A DNA stretch of 58,404 bases, the filler included, from Sphacelaria rigidula (lineage: Eukaryota), in assembly GCA_964200075.2 (NCBI GenBank). It is 9 parts of 9 records of this genome, joined end to end, with 100 filler letters (N's around TTAATTAATTAA, not from the genome) between each part and the next. Parts side by side here need not be neighbours in the genome. Positions count along the whole stretch, not along the records: positions 19,504 to 25,904 come from CAXNAA020020301.1; 8 more parts are not named here. One strand, written 5' to 3'. Position numbers and translations under genes: made by a program. Below the pieces are notes generated by a model, which saw nothing but the letters and a program-made list of their open reading frames with translations, did not search any database and was not told where the DNA came from. Below, piece by piece: positions 6,502 through 39,073 of the stretch (positions within the stretch are counted from its first letter, which is position 1; every line of letters begins with the position of its first letter).

Positions 6502-7311
6502 AAGCAACAAATGAGTACCCCCCACCCCCACCCCCACCCCCAAGCCAGCCCGTAACTGTCTCAAAGACAATGGCCATACAGCGCCTGATATTTTGTTTCA
6601 GGCTGCGTGAAGCGCTTCATATGGGCGACGTTGGCGAGAAACCCAAGCGTGGGAATTCCCAGCTGCTTGTTGTGCTCAGCTTTTTCATTTCGATTCACGT
6701 GCAGATGTTGCCTTCCCAAACCAGCTACTCTTTTTGTTTTTTTTTGGGGGGGGGCTATCGTAGAAAGTGTCCACTGATCTCGCATCCCTACGAATCCGGG
6801 ACGGACTACTATACCACGTTGTCATCGATTCAGGCTAAGCTCCACAGAATGATGGGAGCTTTAAGCATCGTTCACCCTTTCGTTGGTGTCCTCCTGATTT
6901 TGCAAATGCTCGCCAAATGCAAAATATTCAGCAGGCGTGACTATGCCCACGAGTTGAACTTGCATATTTTACCTGTGTGTCTACTTTGGAAATGGAGAAT
7001 ATCCATGGATGTGTGAGTATGTGAGCGTGTCTGTCCCACATTCGACCCTTCCATTTTCTCGAGACGAGTCCATGGTCTTGGGGAATGAACTAATCCAGGG
7101 TATTTTTGTATGGTTAGTTTCACAGCTTCTTCGATATGTTTCTCTCGCCAGACACTGATCAATAGAGCTCGGGATTGAAAACCCAGAACAGCTTGACGGG
7201 GACGGCGTCAAAATCTGTGCGTGCAACAAAGACCCTAGATGAAGCAGCTATTTTCTTTGGACCAACTTCCGCTATGTTTGAGTTGATATACCGCTATGTT
7301 GCTGTGCTAAG

Positions 7312-7988
7312 GTGGCGGTCGGGTCGAAGGAGTGGAGGGCGGCGCAGAGACAACTCCGTGTTCAGGTCGAAGATGAAGACGGTCGTCTAAATAGGCTGGA
7401 AAATGCCCCCGATGATAGCCTCATACGAAATTATTCCCCGGGTGGCGGGGCAGACAGCCGTCGACACCCATCTACAGGGAATTTGGGAGTTTCGGCGGGA
7501 CAGAGCGCGGGTGGTGCCGGCGAAAGTTGGTTGCGAGGAAGCGCGATGAAGGGCGGGCAGCAAGCGGCCACCAACGGCTTTGCGGCGATAAGTAGCACGA
7601 TAGTACGCTCGAAGAAGATGATCAAGTTGAATCTTTCATCCATCAGGGAGAAGGAAGGTATAAAGAAGAAAAAGAAGCGGTAGTATTTGCTAGCGCGTGG
7701 AAACAGAGATATTCGTTCCCAACCTGATATATGCGATCGATTTATACCCTCTGTCTCTCTCCGAATAAGGGTCCAAATCGTCGGAGTAGCGGAGCGCACA
7801 GAATATTCAAGGGTTTCTTTGACCAAGTCGAGCGGAGCGGGACGGTACAGATCTCTGGTCGATGCAGCATCTGTCGCCTGGCCACCTGTTCGACGTTATA
7901 ATGAGTCTTAGTCTGTATATTAAGAACAATTTTGACCCGGTGGAAGTAAAGCGAGTCCTAGTTTGTTGATTGATTGATTGATTGATTA
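7312..7988 (+). mobile_element. Probable 3' fragment of a non-LTR retrotransposon with a (GATT)n tail
   Basis: An ORF remnant ends at 7683, followed by about 280 nt of UTR-like sequence and TTGATTGATTGATTGATTGATT at 7966-7987. Confidence 0.35.
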
Positions 7989-8144
7989 TATCACATTAGC
8001 TGACTGCAACAACCCAGCCCGATGGTCAGGAGCAGCAAAAATAGAACAGAATAGTAAAAAAAATACAAAAAAATGGAACAGAAAAACGACAGTAGCAACG
8101 GCCCTAGAAAGGAAAGAAAAGGGGCAGCGATAACAACAAAAAAT

Positions 8145-8145
<1 letters not shown>

Positions 8146-8208
<63 letters not shown>
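8146..8208. repeat. (ACC)n(AAC)n microsatellite
   Basis: Read directly from the sequence. Confidence 0.95.
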
Positions 8209-11200
8209 TAACGTAGTATATCAAAAACAATTATGACGCGGTGAAAGCTTGCGGCACCGACGTTTTCATAACAAGAACGGGCATGAAAGTAAGCGCGCGG
8301 ACAGGAAACAAAAAGGCCTCAAGCTCTGGCATGTCCTCCCGCGCCTCTGAGGGAGGATACAGCGTTCGAGAATTCTAGCAAAACCGACAGAGGGGTGGGT
8401 GGTGAGGCCACACATATGCGTGGTGGTGTTCAGCGTCCAGTTTTTCGTGCTTTCAAGATCTTATGTTGATTGTACTCCGGGTTGTAGTGCACGGAGTCGT
8501 GTATAGGAACCTTGCTCCACCTGACGTGTCAGGGAAAATATTTACTATTGGTGTACACGGCGAGGCAGCATGTCCACGCAACAGAGATCGACAGGGGAGA
8601 CTCCGGTTATCACCTTCATCTCGAAACGTCCTTTAGGCCAATTCGAAATAATGGAACCAGGATCAATGGTTTCAGTTTCGCACATTCATGATGAACGTTC
8701 CTTGTATTTTTCTTGAAAAGTTGCACGACTTGTTTTCCATTGCGATACATCCTTCCGTTAACAGTAAATATATATTCTGAAAAATGAAAGCGAATTTTCG
8801 AATGAGGATGAACGAAGGTTGAACATTCTCGGAACAGTGGGAAACGGTATTCCTCAACGGCACCTTCAAGGGCATTTGCCCCCCCCGCCCCCGAAGGCGG
8901 AAGAGCTGAGGTTAGAGGTAAACGAGATATTTATATCTGCGCAGGGCACACCCCGTCATTTGTCTATTGCTTTGTTGCGAGGTAGACCGAACACGAGCGG
9001 ACATCACGGGACCGTGACGGGCACAAAGCTGAACGTTTAAGGGCCCAAAGCAGAGCAAACCGCGCCCCCGTGATATTTGTGAAGAACAGTGAAACAAGAA
9101 GAGCGTTTAACCCTTTGACCCCTGGAGTGGGCGATCTGGGTATGGAATACAGACCACTGTATCTGACCTTCTACGGCAGTTTCTCTTAACTTGGGTTTAC
9201 ATCGTTCTCCCCCCCTTCGCCGATTATTTTGTAACCTCGGCTTTCTTCTCAGCTCCAATCACACTCAAGTCGTTGCGCGATCACGATGCCAATTTGTTCA
9301 CGTTGGTGCCAATACGGTTCGGAACGGTTTTCGACGATGCCTCCTCTAAATCAAGGGCGAGTGTCAGTGGGGGCGTGTCAATGGCACCTAAGGTAAGGGT
9401 GGGACATGCGAGTGAGATGTCCCGGTGCCACTGGTATCATGCACGGTAATGTAGGCCATCCGCAGGTGCGTGTGGCAGAAAAAACAAGGGTCGTGCTAAA
9501 TTCATGGACGTCCACGGATTTAGTTACATCCATGGACGTCCATGGATGTGGTTGCATCCACGGGACGTAAATTTGGGTAACTGTCAGCGCACGCCCCATG
9601 AGCTCTGTATGGACACATGAACACCTGAAATACACTCGCACAGTCCGTGATCATCGTTCAAACCATCGCACGGCGCAAACAGTTCCCGGGCGGACGACAA
9701 CACGCTCAGTCTAGAAGCTGCCAAGAGATACCGCACGCCACCCATAGATATTCATATCATCTTTGCGTTCGTCCCATGAGCCTCTCGTATCGACACACCA
9801 ACATCTTTGATACGCTCGCTCAGCCTCTACCCATCGTTCAAGCCATGCACGGCCCAACGACTGCGTAGCGGACGAGACGCGTGCTTCGGCGGTCACCACG
9901 TCGTTGTTCTACACGGAGATTAGTATTCAGGGCGCGGCTCTTGACGACATTGTGCATACACGTGGTACGGAGCACAATCCACCTTCACAGCACGGAAACT
10001 TCGTACGGCTTGTATCGCGAGGGAATTCCATAAACATCCACGGCGGCGACACCATGGGGCACTTTACGGTAGATCCTGCTATAAAGTCACTGATGACCTC
10101 GGAGCCATATTGCTGTCACATTTTGCAGTAGCATGACACTGTCACTTCCTCATTTTTGGTCTGGGAATGTAAAGGCAACAGAAATCTCTCGCGCATGCTG
10201 CACCGACAACCCTTACTTGCAGTACCCAGTCGTCAGTTGGCCACGAGTTGATCGAGCTTTGGGTTTAGGGAGGAAGGGAGGGTCGAAATATTGCTACGAT
10301 GGGGGCTGACACAACGCCTGTCACTCGTACGAGTAGTGGTCACGCATACCCATTATGCATGCATGTCGGCACGGAGGACAATACACACAGGTAAACGATA
10401 GGCCCATTATATTGTGGACACTGTTTTTTTGGAGATCTCTGAAAATTTCAACGTTTCAAAATCCCGCAAAACTTTTCTCCGAAAATGAAGCGGCTTGATT
10501 TTTTCTCCGAAGCTTTACATTTGAGTAATGCCACGGTAGGGGTGCACAAAACACTTCTGAGGTTTGAACTTGTAGAAACCCTTTTATATCATCCATATAA
10601 AGACTCATGCACAATATGAGCGCACGCCACGATTAACGCCCCAATGGGCCATGGATGTCTCGAATAGGTTTTGGAACTGGAATTTCCTCACCCATATTTC
10701 GCAGGTGTACTCCTATTATTTGTAGGAGTCTCAAAAATAGAACGATGTGGGCACAAGTGTGCGACCCCGATCGTGGCATGACTCGTTTGGAGAAGTCTGA
10801 TCACTTCGGGCTGCGACACACTGCGCAACACTTCGCAGAGCTGCCCTGTGCACACGCTGTGGCCCTCGCAAGCGTGGGAAAGTAAGCAGGGACCTTGCTA
10901 TAACAGTGACATCCTGGGCCATGTCGGAGAGTGAAATGCGCCGTCGGTTTGCGGTGTTCATCTTCTTGGACGGTTCGTGCGCTCGAGCTGTTGGGGTCAA
11001 GTACGGCGGTTGCCGTTCGCAGGCATTCACATTTTCGAAGTGAAGAGTAGAAACAATCCAGTGGCGGCCTACTTGCCAGGTATGCGGCTACGACTGTACG
11101 CTATATCGCACCGTCTGCAACGCCAATGTAGCCGGACGTGTGATGGGTGTATCCTCGCATACAACTGACAGAAAGCAAGCATGCTGCAAATTTTGCACTG

Positions 11201-11464
11201 AGCTTTTGAGTGACCCCGGTAACATCAAAGATGTAGTAAGAGGGCGAGAGGCCTGAACGACTTTCAAAACACAACATTCGGCAGCCCGCGCAGATAAAGC
11301 AACAGAGTACAGCTTTGTGACGCACGTAGGTGCCCGTGGCAACAGGTCGCGTAGTTGTGACCGAGGGTGTACACTAACTTCTTTATAATAATGGAGTTGC
11401 GCGTCAGACGGCCCATTCACCCATCTTGTTCAGCATTTCTACAATTGGCATTTCTATTCGTTTG

Positions 11465-11523
11465 TGCTACTGCTACTGCTGCTGCTGCTGCTGCTGCTGC
11501 CGCCGCCGCCGCCGCTGCTGCTG
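11465..11523. repeat. (CTG)n(CCG)n microsatellite
   Basis: Read directly from the sequence. Confidence 0.9.
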
Positions 11524-13057
11524 CACTCCGGGAGGGCCGATCGAACACGCCCGTGCCTTTCCGACTGCTCCCCCGTTTTCACAGAGGAGTTGCGATAAAG
11601 ATGTTCAGCGCAGTTTCGAACGCCATACTCATGATCATGCATGCCACAGTCATAAGACCATTGACCTCGCATTCCTACAATGCCGGGACGGAGCATGCCG
11701 GGTTTTCACCGGACCAGGCCATACGCGGGCAGGCAACAACAGCATTTTTCATTTTGCCGCCAAAGGCGAGCCAACGACGAGATCAGCACTGTGTCCGCGA
11801 TGAGGCATCTAAGACTAGCGGCAGAATTCGATTATGATGGACCGTATGGAGCTCTCCAATATTTCAGGACATCTCAAAATAACATTTCTTCGATATTGAT
11901 AATGGGTCTTGTTAGAGCTAATTGCGCGGCCGTTAGGACTACACTTGGAAGTTTACTGCAGGCCCTAGGCTTTAGTGCTTTGCGGTAAATTGTCGTGTGT
12001 CTTCAAGATATACGTATGCGTCGCGCGGCTCATGGCTACTCGTACATCAGTAAGACGTTGCCGCCTCGGAATTTTTCAACATGAAAGTATAGCGGTAATC
12101 GTGCCATGAGTTATGCACGTGTGTGGTCATGCATTTTGGGAGTTTCGCACACGCAGCTGTTGTTGCTGTCTGCAGCTAAAAGAGGGCGGGGCGTACTTCG
12201 CGGGGTGTGTGCATGCTGTAGGCGGCGCGTGCGGGAGTGGTGTTTCGGCTTTTCGCGCCTGAGATATTTGGCGAAAACCTTTCCCCAATAGCCAGCTGAG
12301 CAACGGGCTAGCACCTCTGCCGACTCGTGAAGCTTGAAATCGTCGTATATCGCCCCTTGTGATGAATCGATACACTTGAATCAAAGAGGCGGAAACATCA
12401 CACATTCACCGCTGGGGATTTTGCAAGCCTTTTGCTGCGAGAATAACGATGCCCCCTTCTATTCTGATGAGGACCATAGGGAACTTGCTGTGGTTTGAAT
12501 TTCATGCAGTGACCATCCTGCCGTAAACAGATTTCCTACAGCTACGTAGTCAAAAGGTTAGAGGAGCAAACGACCACAACAGAGTGGCGGGGTGACTCCA
12601 GTGCTGTTGTGATGCGAACGAAACGGCGGTGCTCTCCGTATCTACTGCAATTCAATCTGTAGAGCTGGCGCGTATAAAGATTTGTTTCCGCATCTCAAGT
12701 ATGCCTTGCCCGTGTCGAAGAGTAAGGCGTGCAAAAATGGTGACGGCAGCGTATTGTGGCCCCAGCAAGGTTGACCAGGCGAGGGAGTCACCGCGTAGGC
12801 GATTTTTTTTTTCTCCACCTGCATGTCCTCTGTCCTCTGTAGCTACTGCTAGAGTATTGGATCGTGCCCGGGGTTTTGTAAGCTTTTTTGCTCTCTCTCC
12901 ATNNNNNNNNNNNNNNNNNNNNNNNNNNNNNNNNNNNNNNNNNNNNTTAATTAATTAANNNNNNNNNNNNNNNNNNNNNNNNNNNNNNNNNNNNNNNNNN
13001 NNCACACACACACACAGTACCAGAGATGCATATAGCGCGAGTTTTCACGGTTGGCCG

Positions 13058-13555
13058 TTGTCCGAGGAAACTTGGGATGATGTTTATTTGACTTCAACAA
13101 CGGCATTCATAACCGATGACCCCCATTTGTGGAACCCACTTCTTTCGTCTTCCGCTAGACGTAATGCCTTCAGCAGTCATGCCAACAGTTGCATCAACTG
13201 TAGTGTTCAAGGCCACAGCATGCGCTACTGTGACAGTCCATGCATCAATGCCTTCGATCTCATGAACCCTGAATTGCAGGACAATGAACCCGCGTGGCGC
13301 CGATGGCAAAAACGCATGCGCGACTATCGTCCACCAACTCGAAATTACCCCAACAATTCGAACCAACGTAGCTACAAAAGCTCTAATCGCGGTCGCCGAC
13401 ACAACAGCAATCACGGAAGCCCTCGCCAGAACGATCAAAATTCTCGCGACAACAAACGATCCGCTGATAGACACCAGCGGACGGGACCGACACAAAGTTC
13501 TAATCCCAACACCAGAAACCCTGGTACCTTCACTACGGATCGCTTAGATCCATGA
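13058..13555 (+). CDS. gag: Gag C-terminal part with CCHC zinc knuckle
   Basis: CINCSVQGHSMRYC is CX2CX4HX4C, followed by an R/N/S-rich tail. Confidence 0.8.
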   Translation: MSEETWDDVYLTSTTAFITDDPHLWNPLLSSSARRNAFSSHANSCINCSVQGHSMRYCDSPCINAFDLMNPELQDNEPAWRRWQKRMRDYRPPTRNYPNNSNQRSYKSSNRGRRHNSNHGSPRQNDQNSRDNKRSADRHQRTGPTQSSNPNTRNPGTFTTDRLDP

Positions 13556-15210
13556 GCGTTCTTCGGTCTTTCACGCCGTCGATAGCACGAGCGAAGACTT
13601 TTTCAACACAGCCCGCGGAGTCCGTGTCAAAAATTGCCCACTCGACTCTCCCGGCAGTATCCAGGAGCGTAACTGACGGCCGTTCATATCGACCCCCGTC
13701 TCGAACCTCCACACCATTTTCAACCCAGCCTGCAGAGCCCGCGACTAAGATTGTCCGCCCAGCTCTCCCGGCACTATTCAGGAGTGCAACTGACGGCCGT
13801 TCAAATCGACCCCCGTCTTCATTCCTCCACACACCGCGTAACAGTTGGGTCACCCCGCGACTCAGATCCACACCAGGCACTGAACTTGTTCATTCAGTAC
13901 CGAGTATAAGTCTGAGATGCGGGAAGACCAACCGCCAGTGCCTGAGGCAACGGCTTCCCTCAACGACCGCACGCACAGGTAGCAGCAAGCCTTTTTCAGC
14001 TGACCCAAGTGTTGCTGGTTTGAACCTGACCGCATCGGATCATGTACTTCCTAATCAGTTCGATCGGGCTCCTTCCCCGCGGTTTTCAAGACGCACGGAC
14101 CTACCTTCGGTCGGTTTTACTAACAACCGCCCCAACATATCTTCGGCTATGCCCCAACAGCCAAACTTGCCTGCGGAAAGCAGCCCACAAGTTTCGCTCC
14201 GTCATGCCCCGATGCTGGCCCCATCCACGCAACTGGACGCAGTTGTGGTTTCATCCCCAAATGTTTTGGAAGTTCCCCGACCTTTGTCACGGCGAAAGAG
14301 AAAGCCCCGCAAGCATGCCCCCAAGGACGCGCGCGCATCATTACGTACACCTCTTTCGAGCGGAAATTCTCGACCTCAATCTCTCCAAAATGCGACGATT
14401 TTGAGCTCGACGACTCTATCAAGTATCCCGGAAGAAACAAAATCACCTGATTTCGACGGCACTACTTCTTCAATCCACGGCTCCAGCTCCGCACATCCTG
14501 GATCCCCCTTTGACGGTGATCCCTGTCAACCAAAGACGATCATTTACGAAATCGCCAATGACCGTGCCACAACTGAAAATAATATACCGTCCACCCCCTT
14601 CTCCGGTGAGACATCTGACCCACCGGCGGATCATCCGTCGTGCGTTTTTGCTGTCAACCCCGCTGATCCTGACCAGTTTACCTTGCCGGAACACGGTCCG
14701 AATCTTGTCGGCGGAAAAGTTTCTGTAGATCCAGCCACCTTTACTACTCGCGTTGCGATCCATGCCGGTCCAAACGCTATCACGCCTACGAAATGCGTAT
14801 CCTTGTTGGACAGCGGCAGCCCGCACACATTTATTCGAAAATCAACATGGAAACACATGAAACAGACTGGCGCTGCTACTGCAGCTTGCGAAACCACCAC
14901 CAAACCTCGCGTGTGGGACGGTTTCGGTGAGTCTGCCGCGCCACTGACGACTTGTAAATCCGTTCGTCTCAGTTTTCAATTCTTTCACAACACCACTCGA
15001 TCTGCCAGCCTAGCAGTCTGGGCATACATTGTCCCCGATAGCACAATGCATCACGCCATATTATTGGGCAGAGATAGCTATATGCGGTTTAATAAACGAA
15101 CCTACCCCACGCTTCCACCACTAACGCCACATTCCACGCCGCGTGGAGAATTCAACCTCGAGCAAATCGGTACTCTCCACGGCGCCCTGGCTTATCAGAA
15201 GAATCCTTAA
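13552..15210 (+). pseudogene. pol: Pol N-terminal ORF: long S/P/T-rich linker plus retropepsin aspartic protease
   Basis: LLDSGSPHTFI active-site motif near 14802-14835 and downstream ILLGRD motif; the frame continues past TAA at 15208. Confidence 0.85.
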
Positions 15211-15819
15211 GCAATCGGAGCTGCTTACCACCTACGATATAACGGTAGCGTGGGTATAACACTCTCCGACGACCCCCAACTTCTTGAAGTTGCACTAGTT
15301 CGCCGAAATGGCATGCCAGCACTTACGGGCCATTATCTTGCCGAAATGGTACCCCGTATTGGCGCACCAGCCGACACAGAACTTTTTGTGTCGGCGGGAC
15401 GACAACTCCTCCCTCTTACGGGACATGCTAACTTGGAACCCGGCGATGTTTTAGAAATCGCCGCTGCTCCCCTGAAGCACATCCCCCTCGAGACGTGCGT
15501 CACAGAGCCTGCCGCACCAAACACCATATCTCCGGCGGAGTCAGTACATTATGTCGATGAACCGTATTTCGATCTCGCCTCTACTACTCCACCCCAGGTC
15601 CACACCGTGGATCCTGCCCAGTCAAATTCCGATCCTCCTGCTGAAGTGCTTCAACGCTTGTCACCAGATTTTCGGAATAGTTTCTTGCACATGTGGCACC
15701 AACTGCCGCCACACATGCGCGACATCAATTTTGACCTTCATGGGCCCGGCTGGGAACTGGCAGTCATCCAAGAACCCAGTGATGTCCTGCTACAGTACCA
15801 AGACCGATTTTCCCATGAC

Positions 15820-17253
15820 GGATCTTGGGCATTGCAAAACACTGCCCTCTGAGGTTACCCTCCAACCCGGTGTCTCGCCGATTTCTTCTCGGCCATACTG
15901 TACCAACCCAATCCTTACCAAGAAAGTTGACGCCATTTTGGATGCGTATTTGGGAGCGAGACTAATACAACATTACTCCTCCTTGGGCCTCGCCACTTGT
16001 GGTCGTCCCCAAAAAGGATGAAAACATACGCGTTACCGTGAATTATTAACGGTTGAACCGCGTCACTGTGGTCGGTAAACTTCCGATTCCCCGCATTGGT
16101 GAAGTCTTCGACTCCTTGGGCGAAAATATTCAACAACTTCGATCTCGCTTCTGGATATTTTCAGAATGCTATACACCCTGACACATTCCCACTGACGGCG
16201 TTTTGTACTTCGTCTGGACTTTATGAGTGGCTTCGAATGCCACAAGGCGCCGCCACGGCCCCGGGATGCTTTCAACGCTTAATGCAACGCGTCACCGAGG
16301 GCCTCGAGCACATCATCATGTACTTGGATGACGCTATCGCTTTCGATGCCTCACCTCTTGCACATATACGCACTCTACGAGAATTTCTCTTTCGCCTACG
16401 TACGCACGATTTGAAACTGTCTCCATCCAAAGCTCGCCCCGGCGCGACTGACTTGGATTTCTTGGGGCATTCCATTTCGCCAGCAGGCCTGCATCCGGAT
16501 ACAAGCAACGTCAAGGCGATGACTGATTTGCCGATGCCAACTAGCATTTCTAAATGTCGCTCATTGTTGGGTGGGCTATCCTACTACCGCAATTTTTTGC
16601 GGAATTTATCGAAACGGATTCGCCCCCTTACTGAGCTACTCAAGAAAGGAGCCGTGTTTCCTTTCACCACAGAAATGGAAAATATCACCCGCGAATTACT
16701 CAAGACGCTTACCGAAAAGCCCGTACTCTGCTTTCCTGATTGGGAGGCAGTACAAGATGGCTTCCGCCTTTTCCAACTCCATACTGACGCCAGCACCAAT
16801 AGTTTTGGAGGAGTTTTGAATCAACCTCAGGTTGATGGCTCTGTCCGACCCATCCTTTATACCAGCCGCGCTACCCTGCCCAACGAGGCCAATTGGAGCC
16901 CGCTAGAACTGGAAGGCGGAGTAATCACTTGGGCCATTAAGTACCTTCGACAACATCTGTTTCACGTGCCCTTCGAGATCTATACGGATCACGGAGCACT
17001 TGAACAACTCGCCAAGGTTGGTGAACACAACCCTCGTCTACAACGATGGTTGGAGTTTCTAACAGCATACCAGTATACCATTAAGCACCGTCCAGGCAAA
17101 TCCAACGGGAACGCGGATCTTCTTTCCCGCTTACCTCTGCCGCCTACGGCCGCAGATTTCAGCCCGGCTTGCCGTTTAACGGAACCCGATGAACCCGGAA
17201 TTCACACGATCAAACGTTTCTCAACGCCTGTTTACGCCCTCGACCCCCAGTGA
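15820..17253 (+). pseudogene. pol: Reverse transcriptase plus RNase H (frameshifted at the 5' end)
   Basis: SPWASPLVVVPKKD, FDLASGYFQ, MPQG, YLDD (16321-16332), FLGH; RNase H motifs LHTDAS, LELE, YTDH, NADLLSR. Confidence 0.95.
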
Positions 17254-17975
17254 CCGGAAACCGGTATGCATATGGAAGGACCTCGCCGTCTACCATATGA
17301 CGCCGTGTTGGGTGGGTTAAAGCCCACTACCTCCGATTTTGTCGATTTTCGCACTTTCGGTACTCGCGCGCAGCTCTTTGCCGAGACACCTCCAGTCACC
17401 CACCTTATCTCCGACAACACGCGCTCCCGGTCTGCCGCCCGCACCACTCCGAGTGCCCCGCCGCCATCAACAACACCTGTAACCCCTATGAGCCACCCAG
17501 CACAAGTTCCACGGACCAACACGCAAAGCTCCGCAAAAAATTCTAAACCGTGCGCCACGCGCCGCGAACAATCTTCGCCGCGCACTGATACAACCCCATC
17601 GCCTATAATGGCGCCGCAAACATCTCCTGCCCCCGAGCACGGATCTGACGACTCGTCGCTAGCTCCCGGAACAGATATTGACGTCGGCATTTCTGCCTCG
17701 TCGCCTATTCCCCCACCGCCTGCCCTACTGTATTTGGTCGGCTCGCCAGCGGAAGATCAACTACGCGAGTTTCTCGCCAGCTACTCTCACCGCGATTGGG
17801 CTCGTAAACAAAACGCAGAACCGCTGTGTCGCGCAGCCATCCGGTACTTACAACTTGACTATCCAGTCCCTTTTCCGTCCACACTTCTGGCCCCGGTTGG
17901 AACACTGCCACCACCAGTTATCTCTGACGTATACGAGCTCGTGCGTAAAGGCACCTTTTTACTACGGATGAAGGC

Positions 17976-19403
17976 GTGCAACTACTCGTACGTCGGCCCA
18001 CGCCTTTGACAGGCGTAATTGCCGCCTCAACTACGGGACGCACCGCACGACTACTCAATGACGAACCAACGCGCATATATGTGCCATTATTAGTGCGCCC
18101 CTGGGTCATGAAAGGCTGTCACACAGACTTGTCATGCCACCTTGGCGTCACCCGCACCCTCGCGCTCTTGGAACGCTTCTACTGGTGGGTTGGTATGGAA
18201 ATTTCAACCCGCTTCTGGATTCAGCGATGCTTTAAATGCCAAGCCCGAAAAACTTCACGACAGACAGTACGCTGGCCCGTGATCTCTATGGGACTCCCCG
18301 ACGAGCCCGGCCACCTTGTGTCCTTTGACTACTTTGGCCCTCTACCTAGCACAGGTCGCGGCAACACCTACATCTTACTCTCCACTGACCGCTTTAGCCG
18401 CCACGCGTCCATGTACGCGGTAACCGCCCGCAGATTTCACTGCCGCCGGAACGGCTGACATACTGGTCCATGATTACATTAAGCACTACGGTTGCCCAAA
18501 GCGACTACTTTCAGACAATGGTCAGCAATTTGGTTCAGACCTCTCTGATGAGCTTTACAAGCTCCTGGGCATCCGCAAAATTGCCACGAGCGCCTACCAC
18601 CCGAACGGTAACGGTGGAACCGAAAGAGTTAATCACACCATGGCCCAGATGCTCTCTATGGTTATCAATGACCGCCAAAATGACTGGGACCTACATCATC
18701 TCTCGCACATCATGTTGTCCTACAACAACTCGGTTAATACCGCCACCGGCCTTTCTCCGAACGAACTTCATCTTGGACGTTACCCTCGGCTGCCTATCAC
18801 CGTATTTGAGCGCCACATGTTGAACGGACACCAAGGATTGGATCAGGATCATATATCCTACAGCGAGCTACCGCATGCACGACAACGCAAAGCGTTCACC
18901 CTCGTGCGCGAACAACACGCTATCAATGCCTCGCGCCTAGAGAAATCTAACACCGCTCTCTACAACCTCATGCACAAACGCCCTAACTGGAAAGTTGGCG
19001 ATTGGGCTTGGATCTACAACAGCTTGTCTACCATCCGCCAAGGCACCAGTAAGGCAGCCTACGAAACAGTTTTGAAGACAAAATTGTCCCTCAATTGGAC
19101 AGGACCATTCAAGATCCTGGGAGTCGGACCATCATCATCATCACCGGATGAAAAACCCGTCGGTGACAAACTGCTCTATCTCGACTTGCCTCGCGACTTC
19201 CAGGGCAAGGACACCAAGCCTCGCGTCTCCGTGCACAGATGCAAACCCTGCATGAACCCGCATGATACAAGCGACATGCCCAAGTACCTGCCTGCCGGAC
19301 TCACACAGTATGTTTTCAACAGCTACTCGACCAAGTCCCCGCCCTACCACGTTACAACCGACGACGTGACGGAACAGCCCCTTCGGTTGGCTGTGTCCTC
19401 CAT
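17976..19403 (+). pseudogene. pol: Integrase (HHCC zinc domain, DDE core, GPF motif), frameshift near 18430
   Basis: H..CHLG..RCFKCQ, SFDYFGPLP, LLSDNGQQF, YHPNGNGGTERVN, WTGPFKI. Confidence 0.93.
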
Positions 19404-19503
19404 NNNNNNNNNNNNNNNNNNNNNNNNNNNNNNNNNNNNNNNNNNNNTTAATTAATTAANNNNNNNNNNNNNNNNNNNNNNNNNNNNNNNNNNNNNNNNN
19501 NNN

Positions 19504-19910
19504 GAGCTAGACTCGACTGACTGATAGTAGGCTTCTTGCCCGGCCCAGCTCGTATTTATTTCTTCCCTTTCCCGTTTCATGTTTTGTGTTCTGTGTTTCC
19601 CTGGTGGCAGCTGCGCCTATGGATATATTATTCATGTTCTCGTAGATATGTATCATACTGCTCTTTCCCGGTGATTACATGGTTGAGTACTGCTCTGGCG
19701 CTGCTTAGTTTTCCCGTCCGCGCTCATCTGTTGATTGTGAATTTCTTGCAGAGGGGGGGCAGCTGCGTAGAGTTTTCCTTCCCGAGCCCATGTGTTGATG
19801 GGGTTTTTCTTTCAGAGGGGAAACACTCCAGTCTGCAGGGCGCTATTGCAGTGAGGTACTCCCCACCGGAGGGGAATAATGCTTCTTCGCGTGGTTACCC
19901 CGGAACGTCA
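19504..19910 (+). mobile_element. Probable 3' end of an LTR retrotransposon: 3' UTR, polypurine tract and candidate short LTR (19764-19910)
   Basis: AGAGGGGGGG at 19750-19759 lies just before TG at 19764; candidate CA end at 19910; tandem stops TGATAG near 19521. Confidence 0.4.
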
Positions 19911-22900
19911 CCTTTCGACTGCGGGTCTTAATAACTTGGCTAATGCGATGGAAAGATCAAAAGAATGGGCATCCCTTCACATTCTGATGGGATATCCCGT
20001 CAAGAGAACAGGGAAAAAGTCCAATGTCGTGGGAAATTGAAGATAACCTTGGGAATTTTCCGAACCTGTACCTGACTTGATACAAGGTACTGTAATGCTT
20101 GTGAATGGGGCCCGATTTCGAGCGCTATATATCGGGAAAATGGATCGACCAACTACATAGTCAGCTGAGAGCTGACGGAATGAAACCTAAATGAGCCGAT
20201 CAAAATCAATCACCAGTACATGCGTTACTCGAAATGACGACCAAGCTCAAACTAAAGTACATTTTACAACAAATCTGTGACTGACGTTGCTGTACAAATT
20301 TTCACAGGGCTACAATAACAGGAGGATAGAAGCTGCGGCTCGTGTTGTTGCTGTGCCCCTTTTGTTGCAGTATGTTGTTGTGCCTATCTTTCAACGCGGC
20401 TGACTCGGCAACGAAGCAGAGGATTGGACTGCGCTTTGATGCGTGCGCTTTCCACACACCGGAACTCGCGACTATACTGACGGTTTCCCGGAACGCGCAC
20501 TGCAGAGGTCGCAGCACTCTGCCAACGGCTGCTCCAAACCCGATATTTACCCTTCAAGGCGTCTCCTTCAACGCTTTGGGGCTTTTCTGGTCCACTATAC
20601 CGATTTGGTCAGATCAGCTCCTATAGTCCCTATGTCTAGTTTGTGTGTGCGGGTGTGTGAAGCGCCACAGGTCAGTTTGCCTCCCGTGTCGAGAACAAGG
20701 CGATGAAAAATCACATCTGTCGCATACCAAACCTAGGTAACTTGGAGTGGAGGATGTGTTCTGTTCAGCGGAGGTTCAGGAGAGGTTCGGCACAGATCTG
20801 AAGGGTTCATGACGTTTTCATTTTTCCTCCGCCTTTCTTTTTTTGTTTTTTGCCCACGGATTTCCGGTCGCTAAGGTCTTCATTCACGGGCATAACTGTA
20901 CAAAAACATCATTTGCGGTATACAACATGTTGACTGAACAAAATCCTGGCGCAAAAGCGAGTCGGCATGTATTGAGCCAACAACCTGTGGACCCATTTTG
21001 GAATGTAATTTTTACCGGTCGGTCGTACATAGAGCAGGCCACGTATGACTTCGAGGTATGTTATTCGCACAGCATGTTCCTTTGAGAGGTGTGCACCAAC
21101 ACATATCGTATGTGTTGAACATTACATGCCGGACAAGCGCAATATGTATTGACCGCGCAAACTGTTTCACGCCCGAAATGGGCAATATATTGCCGGCGCA
21201 ATACGTTATGTGTAAGTGAGTGCCTTAGAGGTTGGACGTGAATGAGTGCAGTATGTATGTTGGGCGTGAAATATACGGGTAGGCCCATAGGTGCAACATG
21301 TGCCGACGAGAAATCTACGTCGTGTGTTGGGTGTAACCTATCGACAAGCCTCAAAAATGTTTTCCCCTCATACGTCCTCAGTATGAACTCTCGCTACGCT
21401 ATTTCGACGGCCCTCGGTGTGCACTATGTGAGGATAACATAATAATACTTGTTATGACTCGACATATGTTGTCCCATCACTATTTTTCATGAACTTGTTT
21501 TGACTCGATATACCGATCTGTCGATATATTCAGAGCCGGGGGGGACGTACATGTTGAAACCTGTTGCTCGGGAGCAATCTCGTGTCCAGCTCATGTCGGC
21601 ACAAACCCAACGTACATCATGGCGTCTATACTCCAAGCTGGGGCACATGTCGAGACCCGCGCAGGTGCTGTCTACGATGCAAAACATCCATCTCTACCGA
21701 AAATCTCACTGACCCGTCGAGGGTCTAGCTCCTACTCACCATGTTGTTCTGTCTGAAGGCACGTTGAGAGCATATGGCATGAGGAGGGGAGGTTGAAAGG
21801 GTGCTGTCTGCGGAGAACATTTTTGCACGATGCCATCAGGAGAATTGGTGGAACTCCAGCGGTGATATTACTGTTAACAAAACATGTAGCACTATGTCAT
21901 CGCGGTGGGGGCAAGTCATCAAACAGCATCGCAGTAATGTGATGGCGGGTTTGTAGCACTCGTGTCTTGAGCCGTTCGTGTGTGCCCTGTTGTGACCAAA
22001 CTTTTTTTTTCATTCCAGTCGCTCGAGTGTCAACCGTTAATGGCGAGTGATGACGTTTCGTTTACCTTGGGTGTGTCTATCTTGTGACCACGCCTGTATT
22101 ACTCGGGGATCACTTAGTGTGCGACAATCAAACAACACGGAGGGCCCGTACGCGGAACCAGGAATAAATGAACAAATGCCACGTACGTACGAAGTGACCA
22201 TGAACAAGACACCGAGGTTACACGAAGCTAAGCCTCTCTACCTGCTGGAGTAAGTGCTGCAGAACCGCTACTCCCGGTCCCGTGTTGGGGGCTGGGTGTA
22301 TTTTGCTCCTCGGGGTATTTTTTACGCGTCCTGTGCACTGAGATGGTATAATTCGGAGGTGCTATCATGCGTTGATCTTCTCGGTAGCTGGAAGCATCAT
22401 TTTTCGGGGGCTGATGTGTCCAAAGTGCTGGTGCTAAACTTACTCTATTTTAGTGTGCTGCTGACTCGTGCTTTATTGCTTCAGCACCTCGGTTTCCAGT
22501 CCATACCAAACGATCGCAGACTACCACGACCACGTACAGAGGGATAGCCCAGGCGCATGATTTGTTATGTGATTTATGGTGACACACAAGGGGGGCGGTG
22601 CATATGGTGTATCTCCCTGCACATGTGAAGCGATATGCATTCGCAAACTCAGCATCAACCCTTGAGGCATACTATGGAGGAGCTCCAAGTACATGGCTCA
22701 GTCCATCATGGCTTCGTCGAGGATCGTGTAGTTGTTGAGCATCGACGATCCAGCCATGCATTTGATATGAGCTGTCTTTCGGAAATCATCGAGATGGTCA
22801 TGTACCGATGTTGAGGCGGGAACTGAGCTTTTTATGAAGTCCTACCACCGCGAAATCCATGTCTTCAAGCAGGGGCTTCACCGCTCAAGCCAAACCGTGT

Positions 22901-24416
22901 CTGTGCGACTTCCCTACGGAATGGAAGGTCCGTATTCGGTAGACACCGATACTCACTGCTCCTTCAACGAGTGAACCTGAGTAGTTTTATTCCCCTATAT
23001 TTCGAAGTGTAAGGTTTACCCATCCATCTCGTACCTCCTGGTTGCGTTGAGTCTGAGTTGGCTGAGTAGGGCCAGCCTTCAGCAAGGCACTGACTTTCGC
23101 TTCTCGTATAAAGAGGCGAAAATGCCAGTGTTCTTTGCTTTCGTTGTGATAACCAATCGTTTCAATCGCCTTCCCTCCAGTATGTCGTATTCTTGATCTA
23201 CTGCTTGGAAGATGAGGAGGTTTTGTCCGAGAGTAAAGTAGGATTCCGTACATTGTCGGTGGGATTCCCGACTGCTTAATGGAAATATCAACTTCGGTTG
23301 TTTACCGTCTTTTGTTTTGGTGTAGTTCCACGTGCTTGTTCACTAATATTCCGTACTCGGTTGTTACATGCATGTCAGTGGTTGTTGCGGACGCTGAAGG
23401 TTTGGTGGCCATCAGTCACCGAAATACCTGCCTGCCTTTTGAGGGCTGGAGTCCTCGGTCGGTTGTATCAATACGCACAACTACAGCGGCAGCACGTACC
23501 AAAGCAGAAATTGGCAGGATTGTACTTACGACGAGGACTAACATCCTCTCAATCATGCCATCTCATCCGCGCAATTGGCTGAAGTTGAGTGGAGGAAGTT
23601 TCCTTAGGCAAAGACAGTTGTGATACACATACATTTCAATTTTATCAAGCTTTCTGCATGACACAATGACGGCGACAGAGAGCGGGGAACGAATGTCTTG
23701 TGGAGGCTCGAAATCTTCCAACTTTCAAGAAAAACATATGTAAGTATATTTTGTGGTCTTTTTCACGATCAATACCATCCCATATTGCTGGTTTTCGGCC
23801 CTACTGTATGGCATGTGCTTGTGTTGTTTTTTCGCATGGGCCGCGCAATCCAGTGGAAAACTCAGTGGAGGAATTATGTGGGCCTTTGCAAAGCTCTCCA
23901 CCAGAGGAATCGGCAGCACTAGATATGTCTCGGAAATGGAACTTCTAACAGAGCAAAGGTCTACCCGACCCTATCACATCGTGACGGCCCACGCAAGATA
24001 TGAGCCGCCCCTACTGACCATTTTCCCTCGAAGTACCATTCGCCTCTTTTGACAAACACTCGAGAATCTTTAACCCGGTGTTTGAATCCGTTTCTTAATA
24101 TCAGGTAGCACCAGGAAAGATAGCCTGTCCGTCTTGTTCGGCCATTTGACAGTGGGACTGCTAAAAGCGGCTAAAATTGTGTGCGCCAGAGCCTCTCGTT
24201 TTGACGACATAGCGGCGAAGGTAGCTTGGCAGTGCGCCCAGAAGAGCTGCTTGAAATGATCACCACATAGCATGACGGGCATCAACGTCGTGGAGCTGCC
24301 GATGGTCAATGAAGTAAACCAAGAGTGCGGTTATCGGCGGCATCTTCAAACAACAATCGTACGGTGTAGCGGGAGGTTGGAAGGCGGAGTTCTGTGCCGA
24401 TCACGCTGGGGCACAG

Positions 24417-25904
24417 ATGGTCAATGTATCGGGCAAGAAGTGCGGCAACGAGGGCAGCTCGGAACAACAATCTTACGGTATAGCGGGAAGCCGGCTGACG
24501 GAGTTCTGTGCCGATCACGCTGGGGAAAGGATGGTTGATGTTGTGAGCAAGAAGTGCCGCAGGGAGGGCTGCTTCAAAGTCCCATCGCTTGGTATAGCGG
24601 GCAGCCGGCTGGCGGAGGTTTGTGCCGACCACGCGAGGGTGGGAATGGTCAATGTAGTGAGCAAGAAGTGTGGTCACGAAGACTGCTCCAAACAACCATC
24701 GTATGGTGTAGCGGGAAGCCGGTTGGCGGAGTTCTGTGCCGAGCACGCGAGGGAAGGGATGGCTAATGTAGTGAGCAAGAAGTGCGGCAGCGAGGGCTGC
24801 TCCAAACGCCCATCGTATGGTGTAGCGGGAAGCCGGAAGGCGGAGTTCTGTGCTGAGCACGCGAGGGTGGGGATGATCGATGTGAAGAGCAAGAAGTGCG
24901 GCAACGAGGGTTGCTCCAAGCGACCAGCGTATGGTATAGTGAGAAGTCGGAAGGCGGAGTTCTGTGCCGAGCACGCGAGAGTAGGCATGATCAATGTTAA
25001 AAGCAAGAAGTGCGGCAACGAGGGCTGCTCCAAACAACCATCGTATGGTGTAGCGGGAAGCCGGAAGGCGGAGTTCTGTGCCGAGCACGCGAGGGTGGGT
25101 ATGATCGACGTGAGGAGCAAGAGGTGCTGCAACGAGGGCTGCTCCAAACAACCATTGTACGGAGTAGCGGGAAGTCGGAAGGCGGAGTTCTGCGCTGAGC
25201 ACGCGAGGGTGGGGATGGTCGATGTGTTGAGTAAGAGGTGCTGCAACGAGGGCTGCTCCAAACACCCGTCGTACGGTGTAGCGGGAAGCCGGTTGGCGGA
25301 GTTCTGTGCTGAGCACGCCAGGGAAGGAATGATAGATGTGGGGAGCAAGAGGTGCGGCAGCGAGGGCTGCTCGAAGCACCCATCGTATGGTGTAGCGGGA
25401 AGCCGGAAGGCGGAGTTCTGTGCCGACCATGTGAGGGTGGGAATGGTCGATGTAGTGAACAAAAAGTGCGGCAACAAGGGGTGCTCTAAACAACGACGGT
25501 ATGGTGTAGCGGGAAGCCGGAAGGCGGAGTTCTATGCCGAGCACGCGAGGGTGGGGATGATCGATGTGAGGAGCAAGAGGTGCGGCAACGAGGGCTGCTC
25601 CAAACGAGCATCCTACGGCGTAGCGGGAAGTGGGAAGGCGGAGTTCTGTGCCGACCACGCCAGGTCTGGGATGATCGATGCGAGGAACAAGAAGTGCGGC
25701 AACACGGGCTGCTCCAAACACCCACGGTATGGTGTAGCGGGAAGTCGGTTGGCGGAATTCTGTGCTGAGCACGCGAGAGTAGGGATGATCAATGTTGTGA
25801 GCAAGAAGTGCGGCAACGAGGGGTGCTCGAAGAAGCCATCATTCGGTGTAGCCGGAAGCCGCTTGGCGGAGTTCTGTGCTGATCACGCCAGGGGAGGGAT
25901 GATT
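24417..25904 (+). CDS. EsV-1-7 cysteine-rich repeat protein, 13 complete 38-aa (114-nt) tandem units, truncated by the contig end; degenerate frameshifted units upstream from about 24229
   Basis: Unit consensus MIDVxSKKCGNEGCSKxPxYGVAGSRKAEFCAEHARVG (C-x4-C...C-x2-H); single open frame with no introns. Confidence 0.93.
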
Positions 25905-27059
25905 NNNNNNNNNNNNNNNNNNNNNNNNNNNNNNNNNNNNNNNNNNNNTTAATTAATTAANNNNNNNNNNNNNNNNNNNNNNNNNNNNNNNNNNNNNNNN
26001 NNNNCCACGACTCAACCACCAGAAGGTTACGAAGTTACCAACTGAGCCACCGGGGCGACCGGCAACTGGGTACACGTATCGACTGTTGCGTCCACGGCAA
26101 TAAGCGATAGATTCTATACAACACGCGGTACACTTCTCGACAATGTAATCGATTGTCCATGGTGTCAATGAGATGCGACCATTTGTCGGACACGCACCAA
26201 ACAAAAGACGCAAAAACGGGCAATAACTGCATCGTTGTCGTCCATATGTATAAATATATATGCCGCACGCACATGCCCATCCCTCCAAACTGAAGGAACT
26301 GTGGCAAATGCGCAAGGGCTGTGGGTGTGCGTATTTTGTTTGGGCTCTGTTGTAAGGGTTTGGCGAATAAGCAACGGTCCCTGTGCTGCCCGGTCAGATT
26401 TGAGGACTATTTTTGCTCTCGTGCAGATCAGAGAAAAGACACGAAGAAAAAATTGCACACATCAAACAGCTCATGAGCTACCTGGATATTACTTCTTACT
26501 AGAGCACCGGTTCGGGTCATGAACTAGCTCAGTTGGCCACTATTTCCGTATCAGGTCCAGACAGCGATGGACGCCGAGCATGTGGGGTAGCGGGAAGGTA
26601 ACGCTTAGGCTTATCTGACCCTGCTGTCACGTGTTTGTATTCTTGTACAGTGGATCCGAGAGTTATCTTCGATTAGCTACATCAGGTGGCTCATGACCTG
26701 TCCGACGCGTGGAAAATAGTGCGCACGTGTATTTCGTCAGGACCCAAACCGGTCACAGACGGACAGACAAACTTGAGCAAAAGCTTCTTCGCTTTTTTTT
26801 ATCGCCTCATCAGCACTAGCCGCAGTAGTTACAAGAGCTGCGATGTCATGCGGGGTATGATACACCCTCATGAAACTCCCCGGGGGCTGCTGTAGGAGTT
26901 ACGTGAGTTGCCCACGCGCGAACATTCAAAAGCTTTTCATCTTGATTTTGCAGGCTGAAATACTGCGTATGCACAGGTGCACAAAACCTTGGTAGATCTC
27001 TCCTACAGTGACCACAGCAGGTACTGTTACTTTGATTCGTTCAAAAATATTTCCAAGCC

Positions 27060-31391: not shown

Positions 31392-33334
31392 CCCGCCCTA
31401 GGGTGTTGTATCTGATCTCGTCGTCACTTCGTACTAATCAGCGACGTCCGTGCACAGACCGTCCTGAGTAACACAGAAATGTTTCGCGTTACGCATTGGT
31501 CATTATTTTTGTGCGAAACGGTGCTTTTTTTTTTGCTGTCCGTGATGGAAGGGAGGATAGAGGACACAAGGCCATAAAGAAGGAAGATGTGCCCTGTATA
31601 ATTCAGTACAACAGGACGAGCAGGGTCAGCCAAAAAGTGGATTCAAGATCTTACATGGCCATATCTCAACGACGCAGACGAATTGGACCGTAATCCGCAC
31701 GCCTTAGTAATCGTCCATTCAAGGAACACATCTCAAGAGCCCGGTTAATGTATTCTCGTTTTGATTACTGCGGTAAAAAACACGATGTCGAGTAAATCCC
31801 CTGACATACGAAGATACCTTGACTGAAGTATATATTATTGCTGGATACAAAATCCCGGAGGATATATATACAGCGGATGGCAATGTTTTTGGTGTGAACA
31901 TTCCCTGGGGAACGGGAAAATGGCCGATACCCTCCCCCTCACCTGATAATTTGATGTATATCTAGGGATTGTGGCGCCCATAGTGTTTGATACTAAATTC
32001 GACATACCACGAGCGACGGACTAAATGCACTACTACTGTTGTTGTAAATCTGGATCATTTTCGTGTCTCAGTTCGAAGAGCTGTCTTCGTGAAATTTGAT
32101 GCGGAGAGTATCGCATGGATGGGCAAAATGCTGTCAACACCAGCAGATTCTAAGGGCGTTTCTTGGCACTTTTTTTTTCGATCGAAAAAGTGCGATCGAA
32201 TTTTTTTTGTGTCATCTGATATAAGTCCACCGCATTTATGTTCCTCGAAGGCTTCAACTCAAAATTATAATTAGCAGCGCGCGGAGAAGAAAGCAACGAG
32301 TGAAAAAACATTTTTTTTCTATCGAAAACGTGCAATCGAAAGGCACGAAGCGGCACCTGACTCTTATCTCCCAGACCATCGCGCCAAATAACACTCGTTC
32401 ACAGNNNNNNNNNNNNNNNNNNNNNNNNNNNNNNNNNNNNNNNNNNNNTTAATTAATTAANNNNNNNNNNNNNNNNNNNNNNNNNNNNNNNNNNNNNNNN
32501 NNNNTTTTCCCTTTTCCCCCTTCCCCCCCCCCCCGGGGGGGGGGGGGGGGGGGGGGGGTAAAAACCGTTTTCTAGTCTGTAAGGCCCCTTGCTTTTATCC
32601 CTGAGTTCTGCTTTTTCCCTGAAACTCTCTATTTGACTCACTCGACGATGTCAGGTTTTCCTTGGGGATGGTGAAAAAGGTTAATGTATCGACAAAGAAA
32701 CACTGGGGTGGACTCTAGGATAAGAAGCTAGCGGGCGTTGACAGGGTAAGTAGTCGAAACGGCCGAACAACGCACCGCAGATGACGAGCTTACAGGGAAC
32801 CCCCACTGGTGTGGTAGTTTTCGCAAGGGAGCATCATATTTGGTGGCATCATTTTCGGTGTTCTGCGGTTGACCTTTTGAAAATTATGGCTTGAACAGGA
32901 ACGATCAGTGCCACAGCAGGAATCCTCCGCCCCCTCGCCGTGCAGCTAGTTTCCCGATGCACTTCGGGCATTTTCCTACATCGTGGGTTGCGCTGGGAGT
33001 TTGAAGACACTACTACCTAGTGCGCCCCACATGGCCTACGCAGCGGGTGATGTTTGTGTACTATCACTGGATGAGCTTGTATGAAACACCCGGTATCTGA
33101 TATGCCCTGGTAGGCAGTGGCCGGGCAAGTGAAGGCTACTTGACCGGTTGTGGAGGCAGTGTACAACACGGCTGTTGACGGCGACAAGCAGAGAAAAAAA
33201 CCGCGCCATATGGATGAACATCGAGAGCTTGTGACGAGCCAAGCCGAACGCACCCCCCACCCAATTCGTAACCAGGCTTCAGTTCGGGCGGCCTCATCAT
33301 AAGTCAAATCGCTGCTGCACCACGTTTTTGTTAG

Positions 33335-38471: not shown

Positions 38472-39073
38472 AGTCGTTGTTGGTGTCGTACTTTCAAGTC
38501 GGCTCCTCCAGGGATCCTCGATACAAGTCCGTAGCCTTCAGGGATCACCCCCATCTCTCCACGGTATATGCATTCCGGAATGGGAATGCGGATTGGACCA
38601 ACGTTTCCTCCCGCGGTCTGCTTACTTCCACCGGATCTTCATTACATTTTGCACCCCGTGTTTCCCACGTATTCGGACGACCCACAACAGTAACAAAACG
38701 TATCTTGCTATCGACCTCGAACCCACAACCTTCGCCGAAACTAATACGTAGTATATACATGTTTCCATTCGACCTCCTGGTCGCGGCAGAATGTACGAGA
38801 TGCATCGCACAATCTACACTGGATTTTTCAAATTGGAGTGAACAGTGTTTTCGTGAGATTGAGAGTAGATGATACGATTGAGAGTGGCTTTGATCATTCG
38901 CTTTNNNNNNNNNNNNNNNNNNNNNNNNNNNNNNNNNNNNNNNNNNNNTTAATTAATTAANNNNNNNNNNNNNNNNNNNNNNNNNNNNNNNNNNNNNNNN
39001 NNNNAAGGTGGGTCAAACGTCATGAAAGTGAACAATCCGCGGGCCAAAAATCTGTTTGCCATAACATCCGGCC

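Follow-up and report, generated by a model that had tools for sequence, protein, structure and literature searches.

At the end of the fourth of the nine slices that make up a 58,404-base stretch of Sphacelaria rigidula DNA (hereafter the window), the plus strand encodes a tandem array of 38-residue Cys/His repeats that, by its match to Pfam PF19114, is a new member of the EsV-1-7 family. Within arrays, variation is greatest at two positions of the repeat unit, 11 and 37, and this holds for the window, for the cellular relatives, and for the arrays of giant viruses. Comparison of ortholog-like proteins suggests that these two positions, together with position 13, look unit-specific and maintained and not simply free; both results are new here. 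We put at about even the chances that the locus is the 5' part of a maintained cellular EsV-1-7 gene whose basic array would bind a linear partner module by module through positions 11, 13, and 37.

The EsV-1-7 family includes gene 7 from the Ectocarpus virus EsV-1 and the Ectocarpus gene IMMEDIATE UPRIGHT (IMM), and is described as numbering about 90-335 genes per brown-algal genome. It is counted among the largest brown-algal gene families. IMM governs early body patterning, and the published accounts, in the portions accessible to us, name no ligand. Denoeud et al. (bioRxiv 2024.02.19.579948), in the parts available, treat the repeat as a possible new class of zinc finger, with 2018 members in genomes from brown algae and sister taxa, and note that the genes often stand in tandem gene clusters. 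Nowhere in the accessible passages of the EsV-1-7 literature are unit-specific positions analysed, nor how far orthologs conserve them, a statement that does not extend to Macaisne et al. 2017 or to the bioRxiv supplements.

With Tandem Repeats Finder the repeats form one array, 24347-25903 (period 114, 13.7 copies, 81% matches, 0% indels, score 1777), and the plus-strand frame that carries it is open from 24318 to the slice end. This frame matches PF19114 (EsV_1_7_cys) with E=1.8e-197 and 639 bits (gathering cut-off 25) in 14 stretches, and a profile scan finds it to be the single EsV-1-7 array in the whole window. A Pfam match to DUF1490 (E=1.6e-27) was rejected as a repeat-driven artefact, none of its stretches passing singly. 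In the unit register used here one unit reads KKCGNEGCSKQPSYGVAGSRKAEFCAEHARVGMIDVVS, unit 1 starts at 24435, and the candidate ligands are C3, C8, C25, and H28. The codon of position 11 then occupies unit start+30..+32 and that of position 37 unit start+108..+110 in every unit. The region 24435-25904 holds 12 complete 38-residue units followed by a 13th with 34 residues (Table 1); the initial annotation of this DNA, made from the sequence by eye, had counted 13 units of exact length. The units follow the ligand pattern C-x4-C-x16-C-x2-H (Cys3His), which suggests zinc binding. The scaffold that the initial annotation called nearly invariant stands in 11 of the 13 units, where all four ligands are present, and is broken by C8S in unit 1 and by C25Y in unit 10. 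Over the 12 full units, no variation occurs at K1, C3, G15, S19, E23, A26, H28, and M33. Both lists of variable residues in that annotation were reproduced exactly: its triplets, QQS to KPS, are unit positions 11-13, and the series S, V, V, V, K, K, R, L, G, V, R, R, V, which it placed at its position 5, is unit position 37.

Table 1. Features of the EsV-1-7 locus and the non-genomic spacers of the window (HMM, profile hidden Markov model; iE, independent E-value)
Feature	Positions	Strand	Evidence or remark
Relics of about two further units	24230..24338	+	Three-frame translation; weak HMM match 24230-24274, iE 0.017
Unit 0, partial, without C-x4-C knuckle, in the array frame	24339..24434	+	HMM positions 7-36, iE 1.4e-14
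Unit 1, full length, Ser replacing Cys8	24435..24548	+	Unit alignment, HMM
Units 2-9, eight complete 114-nt units, each with C3, C8, C25, and H28	24549..25460	+	
Unit 10, Tyr replacing Cys25, one ligand lost	25461..25574	+	
Units 11 and 12, complete, four ligands each	25575..25802	+	
Unit 13, 34 codons and then the slice end	25803..25904	+	3' part of the gene lies outside the window
Spacers N44-TTAATTAATTAA-N44	6402-6501, 12903-13002, 19404-19503, 25905-26004		Non-genomic
Further spacers N44-TTAATTAATTAA-N44	32405-32504, 38905-39004, 45405-45504, 51905-52004		Non-genomic

The reading frame of the array is under purifying selection. When units 3-12 are compared pairwise, the ratio of nonsynonymous to synonymous differences per site (pN/pS) is 0.35 in the EsV-1-7 frame versus 0.46-1.52 in the other five frames, with the highest value in a 510-codon open antisense frame (pN/pS 1.52); with all 13 units pooled it is 0.37, at a pS of 0.375. 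Parsimony mapping on a neighbour-joining tree built from the 12 full units counted 80 nonsynonymous and 51 synonymous changes (omega 0.44). Along the unit the synonymous changes fall evenly (p=0.74) and the nonsynonymous ones do not (chi2 98, a value reached in 0 of 20000 simulations), the largest numbers falling at positions 37 (nine changes), 11 (eight), 21 (eight), and 13 (six). At position 21 the replacement of K by L takes two base changes. Over the same 12 units position 37 has the greatest entropy (2.05 bits) and position 11 the next (1.83 bits), followed by positions 5 and 13 (1.42 each). The view of the initial annotation that variation is concentrated at its triplet and its position 5 is borne out in that the changes are uneven, but they are not confined to a few sites, positions 37, 11, 21, and 13 together accounting for 31 of the 80 nonsynonymous changes. 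Likewise, its description of the variable residues as Q, R, H, and K fits position 11, but position 37 carries V/K/R/L/G and position 13 S/A/L/R.

The wider family shows the same positions standing out. Out of 8000 candidates scored in a search of 5.8 billion proteins, 669 qualified as relatives at E<=1e-5, and the 120 best of the 669 were used. Among these the closest named relatives are brown-algal, first other Sphacelaria rigidula proteins (at most 64% identity over about half of the query) and then Ascophyllum, Pylaiella, and Ectocarpus, followed by many metagenome proteins; with 64% as the best identity, the protein collections searched contain no close ortholog of the array protein. In the 120 relatives plus the array protein the commonest spacings are x4 (859) and x16 (674), with a period of 38 (447 motif matches), as in the window. 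The 120 relatives supplied 360 canonical units whose next unit lies exactly 38 residues on. For the 29 relatives with at least five canonical units, mean within-array entropy is highest at positions 11 (1.72) and 37 (1.56), with 13, 38, 2, and 31 next, and the whole entropy profile correlates with that of the window array (Spearman 0.63, p=2e-5). Seven giant-virus arrays of at least five units, fetched with the window array, again have their highest entropies at positions 11 (2.04) and 37 (1.92). In a mutual-information analysis of 537 two-unit windows, same-position pairs hold most of the top ranks, so that neighbouring units tend to agree at most of the positions that vary in the family; positions 15, 29, 17, 19, 23, 30, 16, 6, and others take ranks 1-20 in this sharing, but positions 11 and 37 are shared far less (ranks 57 and 44 of 2701).

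Whether these positions change between orthologs was assessed in ortholog-like pairs, for which the identity had to reach 70% across 70% or more of the shorter protein's length. From 227 proteins 26 such pairs were obtained; one pair, consisting of isoforms of a single gene model, was dropped, and the rest form 12 ortholog-like groups with 48 canonical units and 61 change opportunities per unit position. Positions 11, 13, and 37 each changed in five of 61 opportunities, whereas the repeats as a whole changed in 239 of 2318 and the non-repeat tails in 756 of 4606. Faster positions are 9 (17/61), 19 and 31 (14/61 each), and 27 (13/61), and the D/N switch at position 35 changed once in 61. Taken together, positions 11, 13, and 37 (15/183) are about twofold slower than the other high-entropy positions (169/1098; Fisher p=0.009) and twofold slower than the tails (p=0.002). 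A bootstrap over the 12 groups puts the rate ratio at 0.53 (95% interval 0.27-0.85), with 0.3% of resamples at or above 1. Unconstrained sites would be expected to be the fastest between orthologs, and the slower pace of these three therefore argues against pure neutrality across the family. Beside this, one Ectocarpus siliculosus EsV-1-7 protein (P0031) finds its best non-self relative at only 59% identity, although several Ectocarpus species have been sequenced, which hints at fast gene turnover in the family.

Structure prediction gives small, regular modules. AlphaFold2 modelled units 4-6 (84 aligned rows) with a mean predicted local distance difference test (pLDDT) score of 82 and a predicted template-modelling (pTM) score of 0.44, and the 496-residue array (107 rows) with a mean pLDDT of 80.1 and a pTM of 0.51; pLDDT is 88-97 over most of residues 50-350, and units 2-9 fall mostly in that range. 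DSSP assigns to each modelled unit two short strands (14-16 and 33-35), a bridge (24), and, between Cys25 and His28, a three-residue helix (26-28). Unit 10 (residues 351-383, pLDDT 33-43) is the sole internal unit of low confidence, and since it has lost Cys25 and is modelled as disordered, it gives a hint that the fold may need all four ligands. The order of the strands suggests that positions 11/13 and 37 could share one edge of a small sheet beside the knuckle. The initial annotation had likened the array to transcription activator-like effectors (TALEs), and on this point the models disagree, as they contain small modules of strands and a short helix and no helical solenoid. Searches of the PDB by sequence gave no match, either with a four-unit piece or with the unit profile, and a profile of the full alignment returned chance-level rows only (E 5-8). 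Foldseek found no PDB match at E<=0.001 with either model, VIA-align none with Z>=2 among 48,161 chains, and a search of the ESM Atlas no usable match. The non-significant fold rows comprise the nsp13 zinc domain, the ArfGAP finger, B-box, LIM, PHD, and A20 ZF7, and they are not evidence. Within the viral structure collection BFVD, 28 giant-virus proteins match the array at E<=0.001. EsV-1-7 itself is among them as match number 2 (50% identity), and the names of the others include 'Endonuclease' four times and 'DNA primase' once.

The protein is basic, as the initial annotation had stated: the 496 residues include 45 K, 41 R, 14 D, and 36 E, for a net charge of +36 and an isoelectric point of 9.29. 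Units of the family carry a mean charge of +2.7, and acidic residues make up at most 2% at positions 1, 2, 10, 11, 13, 20, 21, and 37. What EsV-1-7 units are fused to is also informative. In 10 of the 13 viral loci fetched with the window array (L002, L005-L013), the units are followed by a conserved C-terminal domain of about 150 residues with the motif D...ExDExQH..Y...RFNPD, in which E, D, E, H, and R-x-N-P are among the invariant residues. Because some of the ten are near-identical or are paralogs on one contig, they represent about six distinct genes. Pfam recognises only PF19114 in these proteins and not the C-terminal domain. The PDB profile search with this domain returned weak hits only, the top four being PD-(D/E)xK nucleases (E 0.38-0.53), with no match to Vsr or to PDB entry 3R3P (I-Bth0305I), and one of six members matches 'HNH endonuclease' in PHROG (E=0.0009). 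These weak resemblances suggest that the domain may be nuclease-like. An Ectocarpus Tc1/mariner transposase carries an N-terminal EsV-1-7 domain according to the accessible part of PMC12477816, and a role as zinc-finger transcription factors has been hypothesised for EsV-1-7 proteins (PMC12629598, likewise in part). Among the longer relatives, predicted gene models join the repeats to ubiquitin hydrolase together with DUSP and zf-MYND (P0122, P0129), to TPR (P0132), and to EF-hand (P0130), and others to DOT1, helicase-associated HA domains, and reverse transcriptase. The fusion partners point towards DNA, though not all of them do. The initial annotation also expected an effector domain past the point where the array is cut; the relatives give no reason to expect one, as the Ectocarpus EsV-1-7 members, in what is accessible of a 2026 preprint, are without any other Pfam domain. 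Several brown-algal relatives (P0006, P0009, P0019, P0027, P0037, P0040, P0050, and others) have a basic G-x-KRKR(A)-like motif in a low-complexity, poorly conserved tail, which may be a nuclear-localisation signal.

In the mechanism we propose, each module would fold round one zinc ion as a small finger made of the knuckle, short strands, and a one-turn helix with Cys25 and His28, and the modules would form a regular basic array in which most residues serve as scaffold. Positions 37 and 11, with 13 beside 11, would flank the knuckle as candidate ligand-contact residues. The partner bound by the array would be long, linear, and negatively charged, with DNA the likeliest candidate and RNA a less likely one, and the order of the units would set which sequence or site is bound. 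Zinc and nucleic-acid binding, contact through positions 11, 13, and 37, and any per-unit specificity are the parts of this scheme that we infer. Of the modular reader suggested in the initial annotation, the fixed scaffold with unit-specific, maintained positions and the DNA-leaning context stand, and the structural likeness to TALEs falls away.

Several observations weigh against this proposal. Compared with the neutral expectation on the unit tree, position 37 has nine changes where 4.55 are expected (p=0.043, before correction for 38 sites), and the remaining top sites have eight versus 4.9, eight versus 4.95, and six versus 4.0, so that no variable site survives correction for 38 sites as faster than neutral. 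Since the top sites evolve at about the neutral rate within the array, positive (diversifying) selection is not demonstrated, and the window alone cannot separate free from selected sites. Positions 5, 9, 27, 31, and 38 are variable too, which leaves no clean two-residue code. Mutual information over 537 two-unit windows gave no clear coupling between positions 37 and 11, which rank 95-98 of 2701 in either register. The ortholog-like groups are based on identity, form a small sample (48 units), and in several cases consist of metagenome proteins, and the window gene belongs to none of the 12. With no significant sequence or fold match to solved structures, no fold can be assigned. The fusions to ubiquitin hydrolase/zf-MYND, TPR, and EF-hand point to protein-level roles, and two of the 13 units lack one ligand while the 5' edge has decayed.

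Some of these points favour a different ligand. The array might be a protein-protein interaction scaffold like tandem LIM, PHD, B-box, or MYND modules, with unit-specific positions that tune the protein partners. The only structural rows obtained, none of them significant, come from tandem zinc modules whose ligands are mostly proteins (nsp13, LIM, PHD, B-box, A20 ZF7), the ubiquitin hydrolase, DUSP, zf-MYND, TPR, and EF-hand fusions are of the same tenor, and unit-specific residues that are kept between orthologs would fit any specific ligand. Those fusions, however, are predictions of gene models, and a protein scaffold accounts poorly for the strong net positive charge and for the near-absence of acidic residues at eight surface-type positions. 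Moreover, arrays precede a nuclease-like domain in giant viruses and, in the accessible part of PMC12477816, a transposase, where a DNA-targeting module is usual. We regard a protein scaffold as a possible but fairly unlikely explanation.

A second alternative is that there is no code and that positions 11, 13, and 37 are the least constrained surface residues of a duplicating, homogenising repeat, the differences between units being neutral. The near-neutral rates within the array speak for it, as only position 37 departs from expectation and does so before correction, and so do the many further variable positions. In addition, the K/L alternation at position 21 and the V/E alternation at position 31 look like inherited unit subtypes. 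Taken with the uneven distribution of changes, the neutral-like top sites indicate that the scaffold is selected and that the variable sites are at least unconstrained between units. Against neutrality stand the halved rate at positions 11/13/37 between ortholog-like proteins, for which the bootstrap fraction at or above 1 is 0.003, and the recurrence of positions 11 and 37 at the top of three separate data sets. On balance we think it unlikely that the unit differences are simply neutral.

The 5' edge of the array looks relaxed or eroded, and the decay is limited to this edge. The initial annotation let the array begin at 24229; the DNA from there to 24434 is indeed derived from EsV-1-7, but consists of decayed relics and the knuckle-less unit 0. 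The relics read WQCAQKSCLK-stop, followed by two 'G(M/I)NVV'-like linkers, and are disrupted by a frameshift and internal deletions as well as by the stop. In the array frame, ATG first occurs at 24417-24419, in the 'GMVNV' linker of unit 0, and the annotated Sphacelaria relative P0009 likewise begins at the linker Met (MVNVV). An upstream ATG at 24272 opens an 88-codon out-of-frame open reading frame (ORF). Two DNA-like sequencing runs of the same organism (X1, X2) carry 24414 C>T, which creates a TAG directly before the ATG at 24417, and 24533 G>A, by which unit 1 has Ile (ATG>ATA) at the Met33 that is invariant elsewhere. It is improbable that the locus is a decaying or dead copy, that is, a pseudogene or the eroding array edge of a large, fast-turning family, since the relics with their stop and frameshift, the missing knuckle, the ligands lost in units 1 and 10, the out-of-frame ORF, and the Met33 change in the DNA-like runs are set against 496 open codons whose pN/pS is the lowest of six frames, 11 of 13 units intact and confidently modelled by AlphaFold2, decay confined to the 5' edge, and the precedent of P0009 for a start at 24417.

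The sequencing runs bear on the locus in two further ways. In two runs guessed to be RNA, contig word depth is 45-54 on 24212-24650 versus 2-6 on 21504-24123 for the contigs listed, whereas the two DNA-like runs have a depth of about 70-150 on both intervals; this contrast is at most a hint of expression, as contig depth cannot rank the parts of a gene. In X1 and X2 the bins of the array have summed depths of 1,000-14,600 versus about 100-200 in most upstream bins, the array core exceeding the single-copy flanks tens of times over, and hundreds of distinct contigs match the array core (24591-25904) at 95% identity or more. The excess indicates many near-identical EsV-1-7 units elsewhere in the organism, the depth not being a copy number. 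Contig joints that skip 3, 4, or 6 x 114 nt were considered as unit-number alleles and rejected, their sides being only 21-28 letters long; they are most likely contigs of paralogous arrays. The analysis yielded no direct support for calling the array recombining, as the initial annotation did. A search for the missing 3' end with an exact 41-nt pattern from unit 1 found no match in metagenome contigs.

Among known systems, the gene is closest to the EsV-1-7 family itself, with which it shares the PF19114 match, the 38-residue period, the C-x4-C-x16-C-x2-H pattern, and brown-algal best relatives; the relatives listed have 5-8 canonical units and the window copy has at least 13. The nuclease-fused arrays of giant viruses have the same repeat and the same most variable positions (11 and 37) as the window array, but the window gene is cellular and lies in gene-poor flanks, and brown-algal relatives end in a low-complexity tail with a G-x-KRKR-like motif where viral arrays end in the nuclease-like domain. 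A likeness in outline to the C2H2 arrays of KRAB zinc-finger proteins also suggests itself: both would be tandem small zinc modules with few unit-specific positions, whose residues differ between neighbours and are kept between orthologs, in large, fast-turning, tandem-clustered families. C2H2 fingers follow the pattern C-x2-4-C-x12-H-x3-5-H and adopt a beta-beta-alpha fold. The window units instead have C-x4-C-x16-C-x2-H with short strands and a one-turn helix, and zf-C2H2 is neither matched by the array protein in Pfam nor present among the 25 families listed for the 84 proteins scanned (83 relatives plus the array protein). TALEs, like PPR and PUF proteins, resemble the array in their exact-length tandem units with variation concentrated at few positions; they differ in that the variation in the window is not in one di-residue, the units match at about 81% of nucleotides, and no base-per-repeat relation is known.

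The plant SBP domain (PF03110) comes close in ligand spacing. Its first zinc site is Cys3His with the spacing C-x4-C-x16-C-x2-H, the same as in EsV-1-7 units, and it has a second, interleaved zinc site that is without counterpart in these units. The four-unit piece matches the SBP profile over positions 1-37 from the first Cys with E=0.0019 and 18.9 bits (cut-off 27), which is below the gathering score, and SBP is absent from the 25 families listed for the 84 proteins. Zf_WRKY19 (PF24906) is matched at E<=0.01 by seven of the 84, the array protein not being one of them.

The window as a whole consists of nine slices of about 6.4 kb each, joined by eight spacers (Table 1). Features at slice ends are therefore cut by sampling and do not necessarily lie at contig ends. 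The array stands at the end of slice 4 (19504-25904), and what the initial annotation took for a contig end at 25904 is the start of a slice spacer, so that a contig end is not proven. As the cut coincides with a slice boundary, the gene very likely continues beyond 25904. Upstream of the array, slice 4 has short ORFs only, without Pfam match, which fits intergenic or intron-rich eukaryotic DNA and not a gene-dense viral insert; neither the flanking ORFs nor the 510-aa antisense ORF match any Pfam family above cut-off. Elsewhere in the window, a run of long plus-strand ORFs occupies 13504-19401. One of them (16057-17250, plus strand) matches RVT_1 (E=1.7e-17) and reverse transcriptase RNase H (E=3e-26), domains that mark it as the pol region of a retrotransposon, and its neighbours in the run have no Pfam match at E<=0.001.

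More speculatively, and with a probability that we would call low, EsV-1-7 arrays could make up one more class of natural nucleic-acid reader that is modular and programmable, in which each 38-residue Cys3His module would contact a short step of DNA through the residues at positions 37, 11, and 13 beside its zinc knuckle and the order of the units would spell the target. If this is true, giant viruses would aim homing-type nucleases by means of EsV-1-7 arrays, and the brown-algal expansion would represent hundreds of fast-turning, sequence-specific regulators or silencers of viruses and transposons, comparable to the KRAB zinc-finger genes of vertebrates. The idea would then explain the expansion of the family, and DNA-targeting modules of a new type would be gained; should it fail, a scaffold for docking proteins becomes the more likely role of the family. 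Positions 11, 13, and 37, together with the nuclease-like and transposase fusions, provide a concrete and testable handle on what the EsV-1-7 repeat binds.

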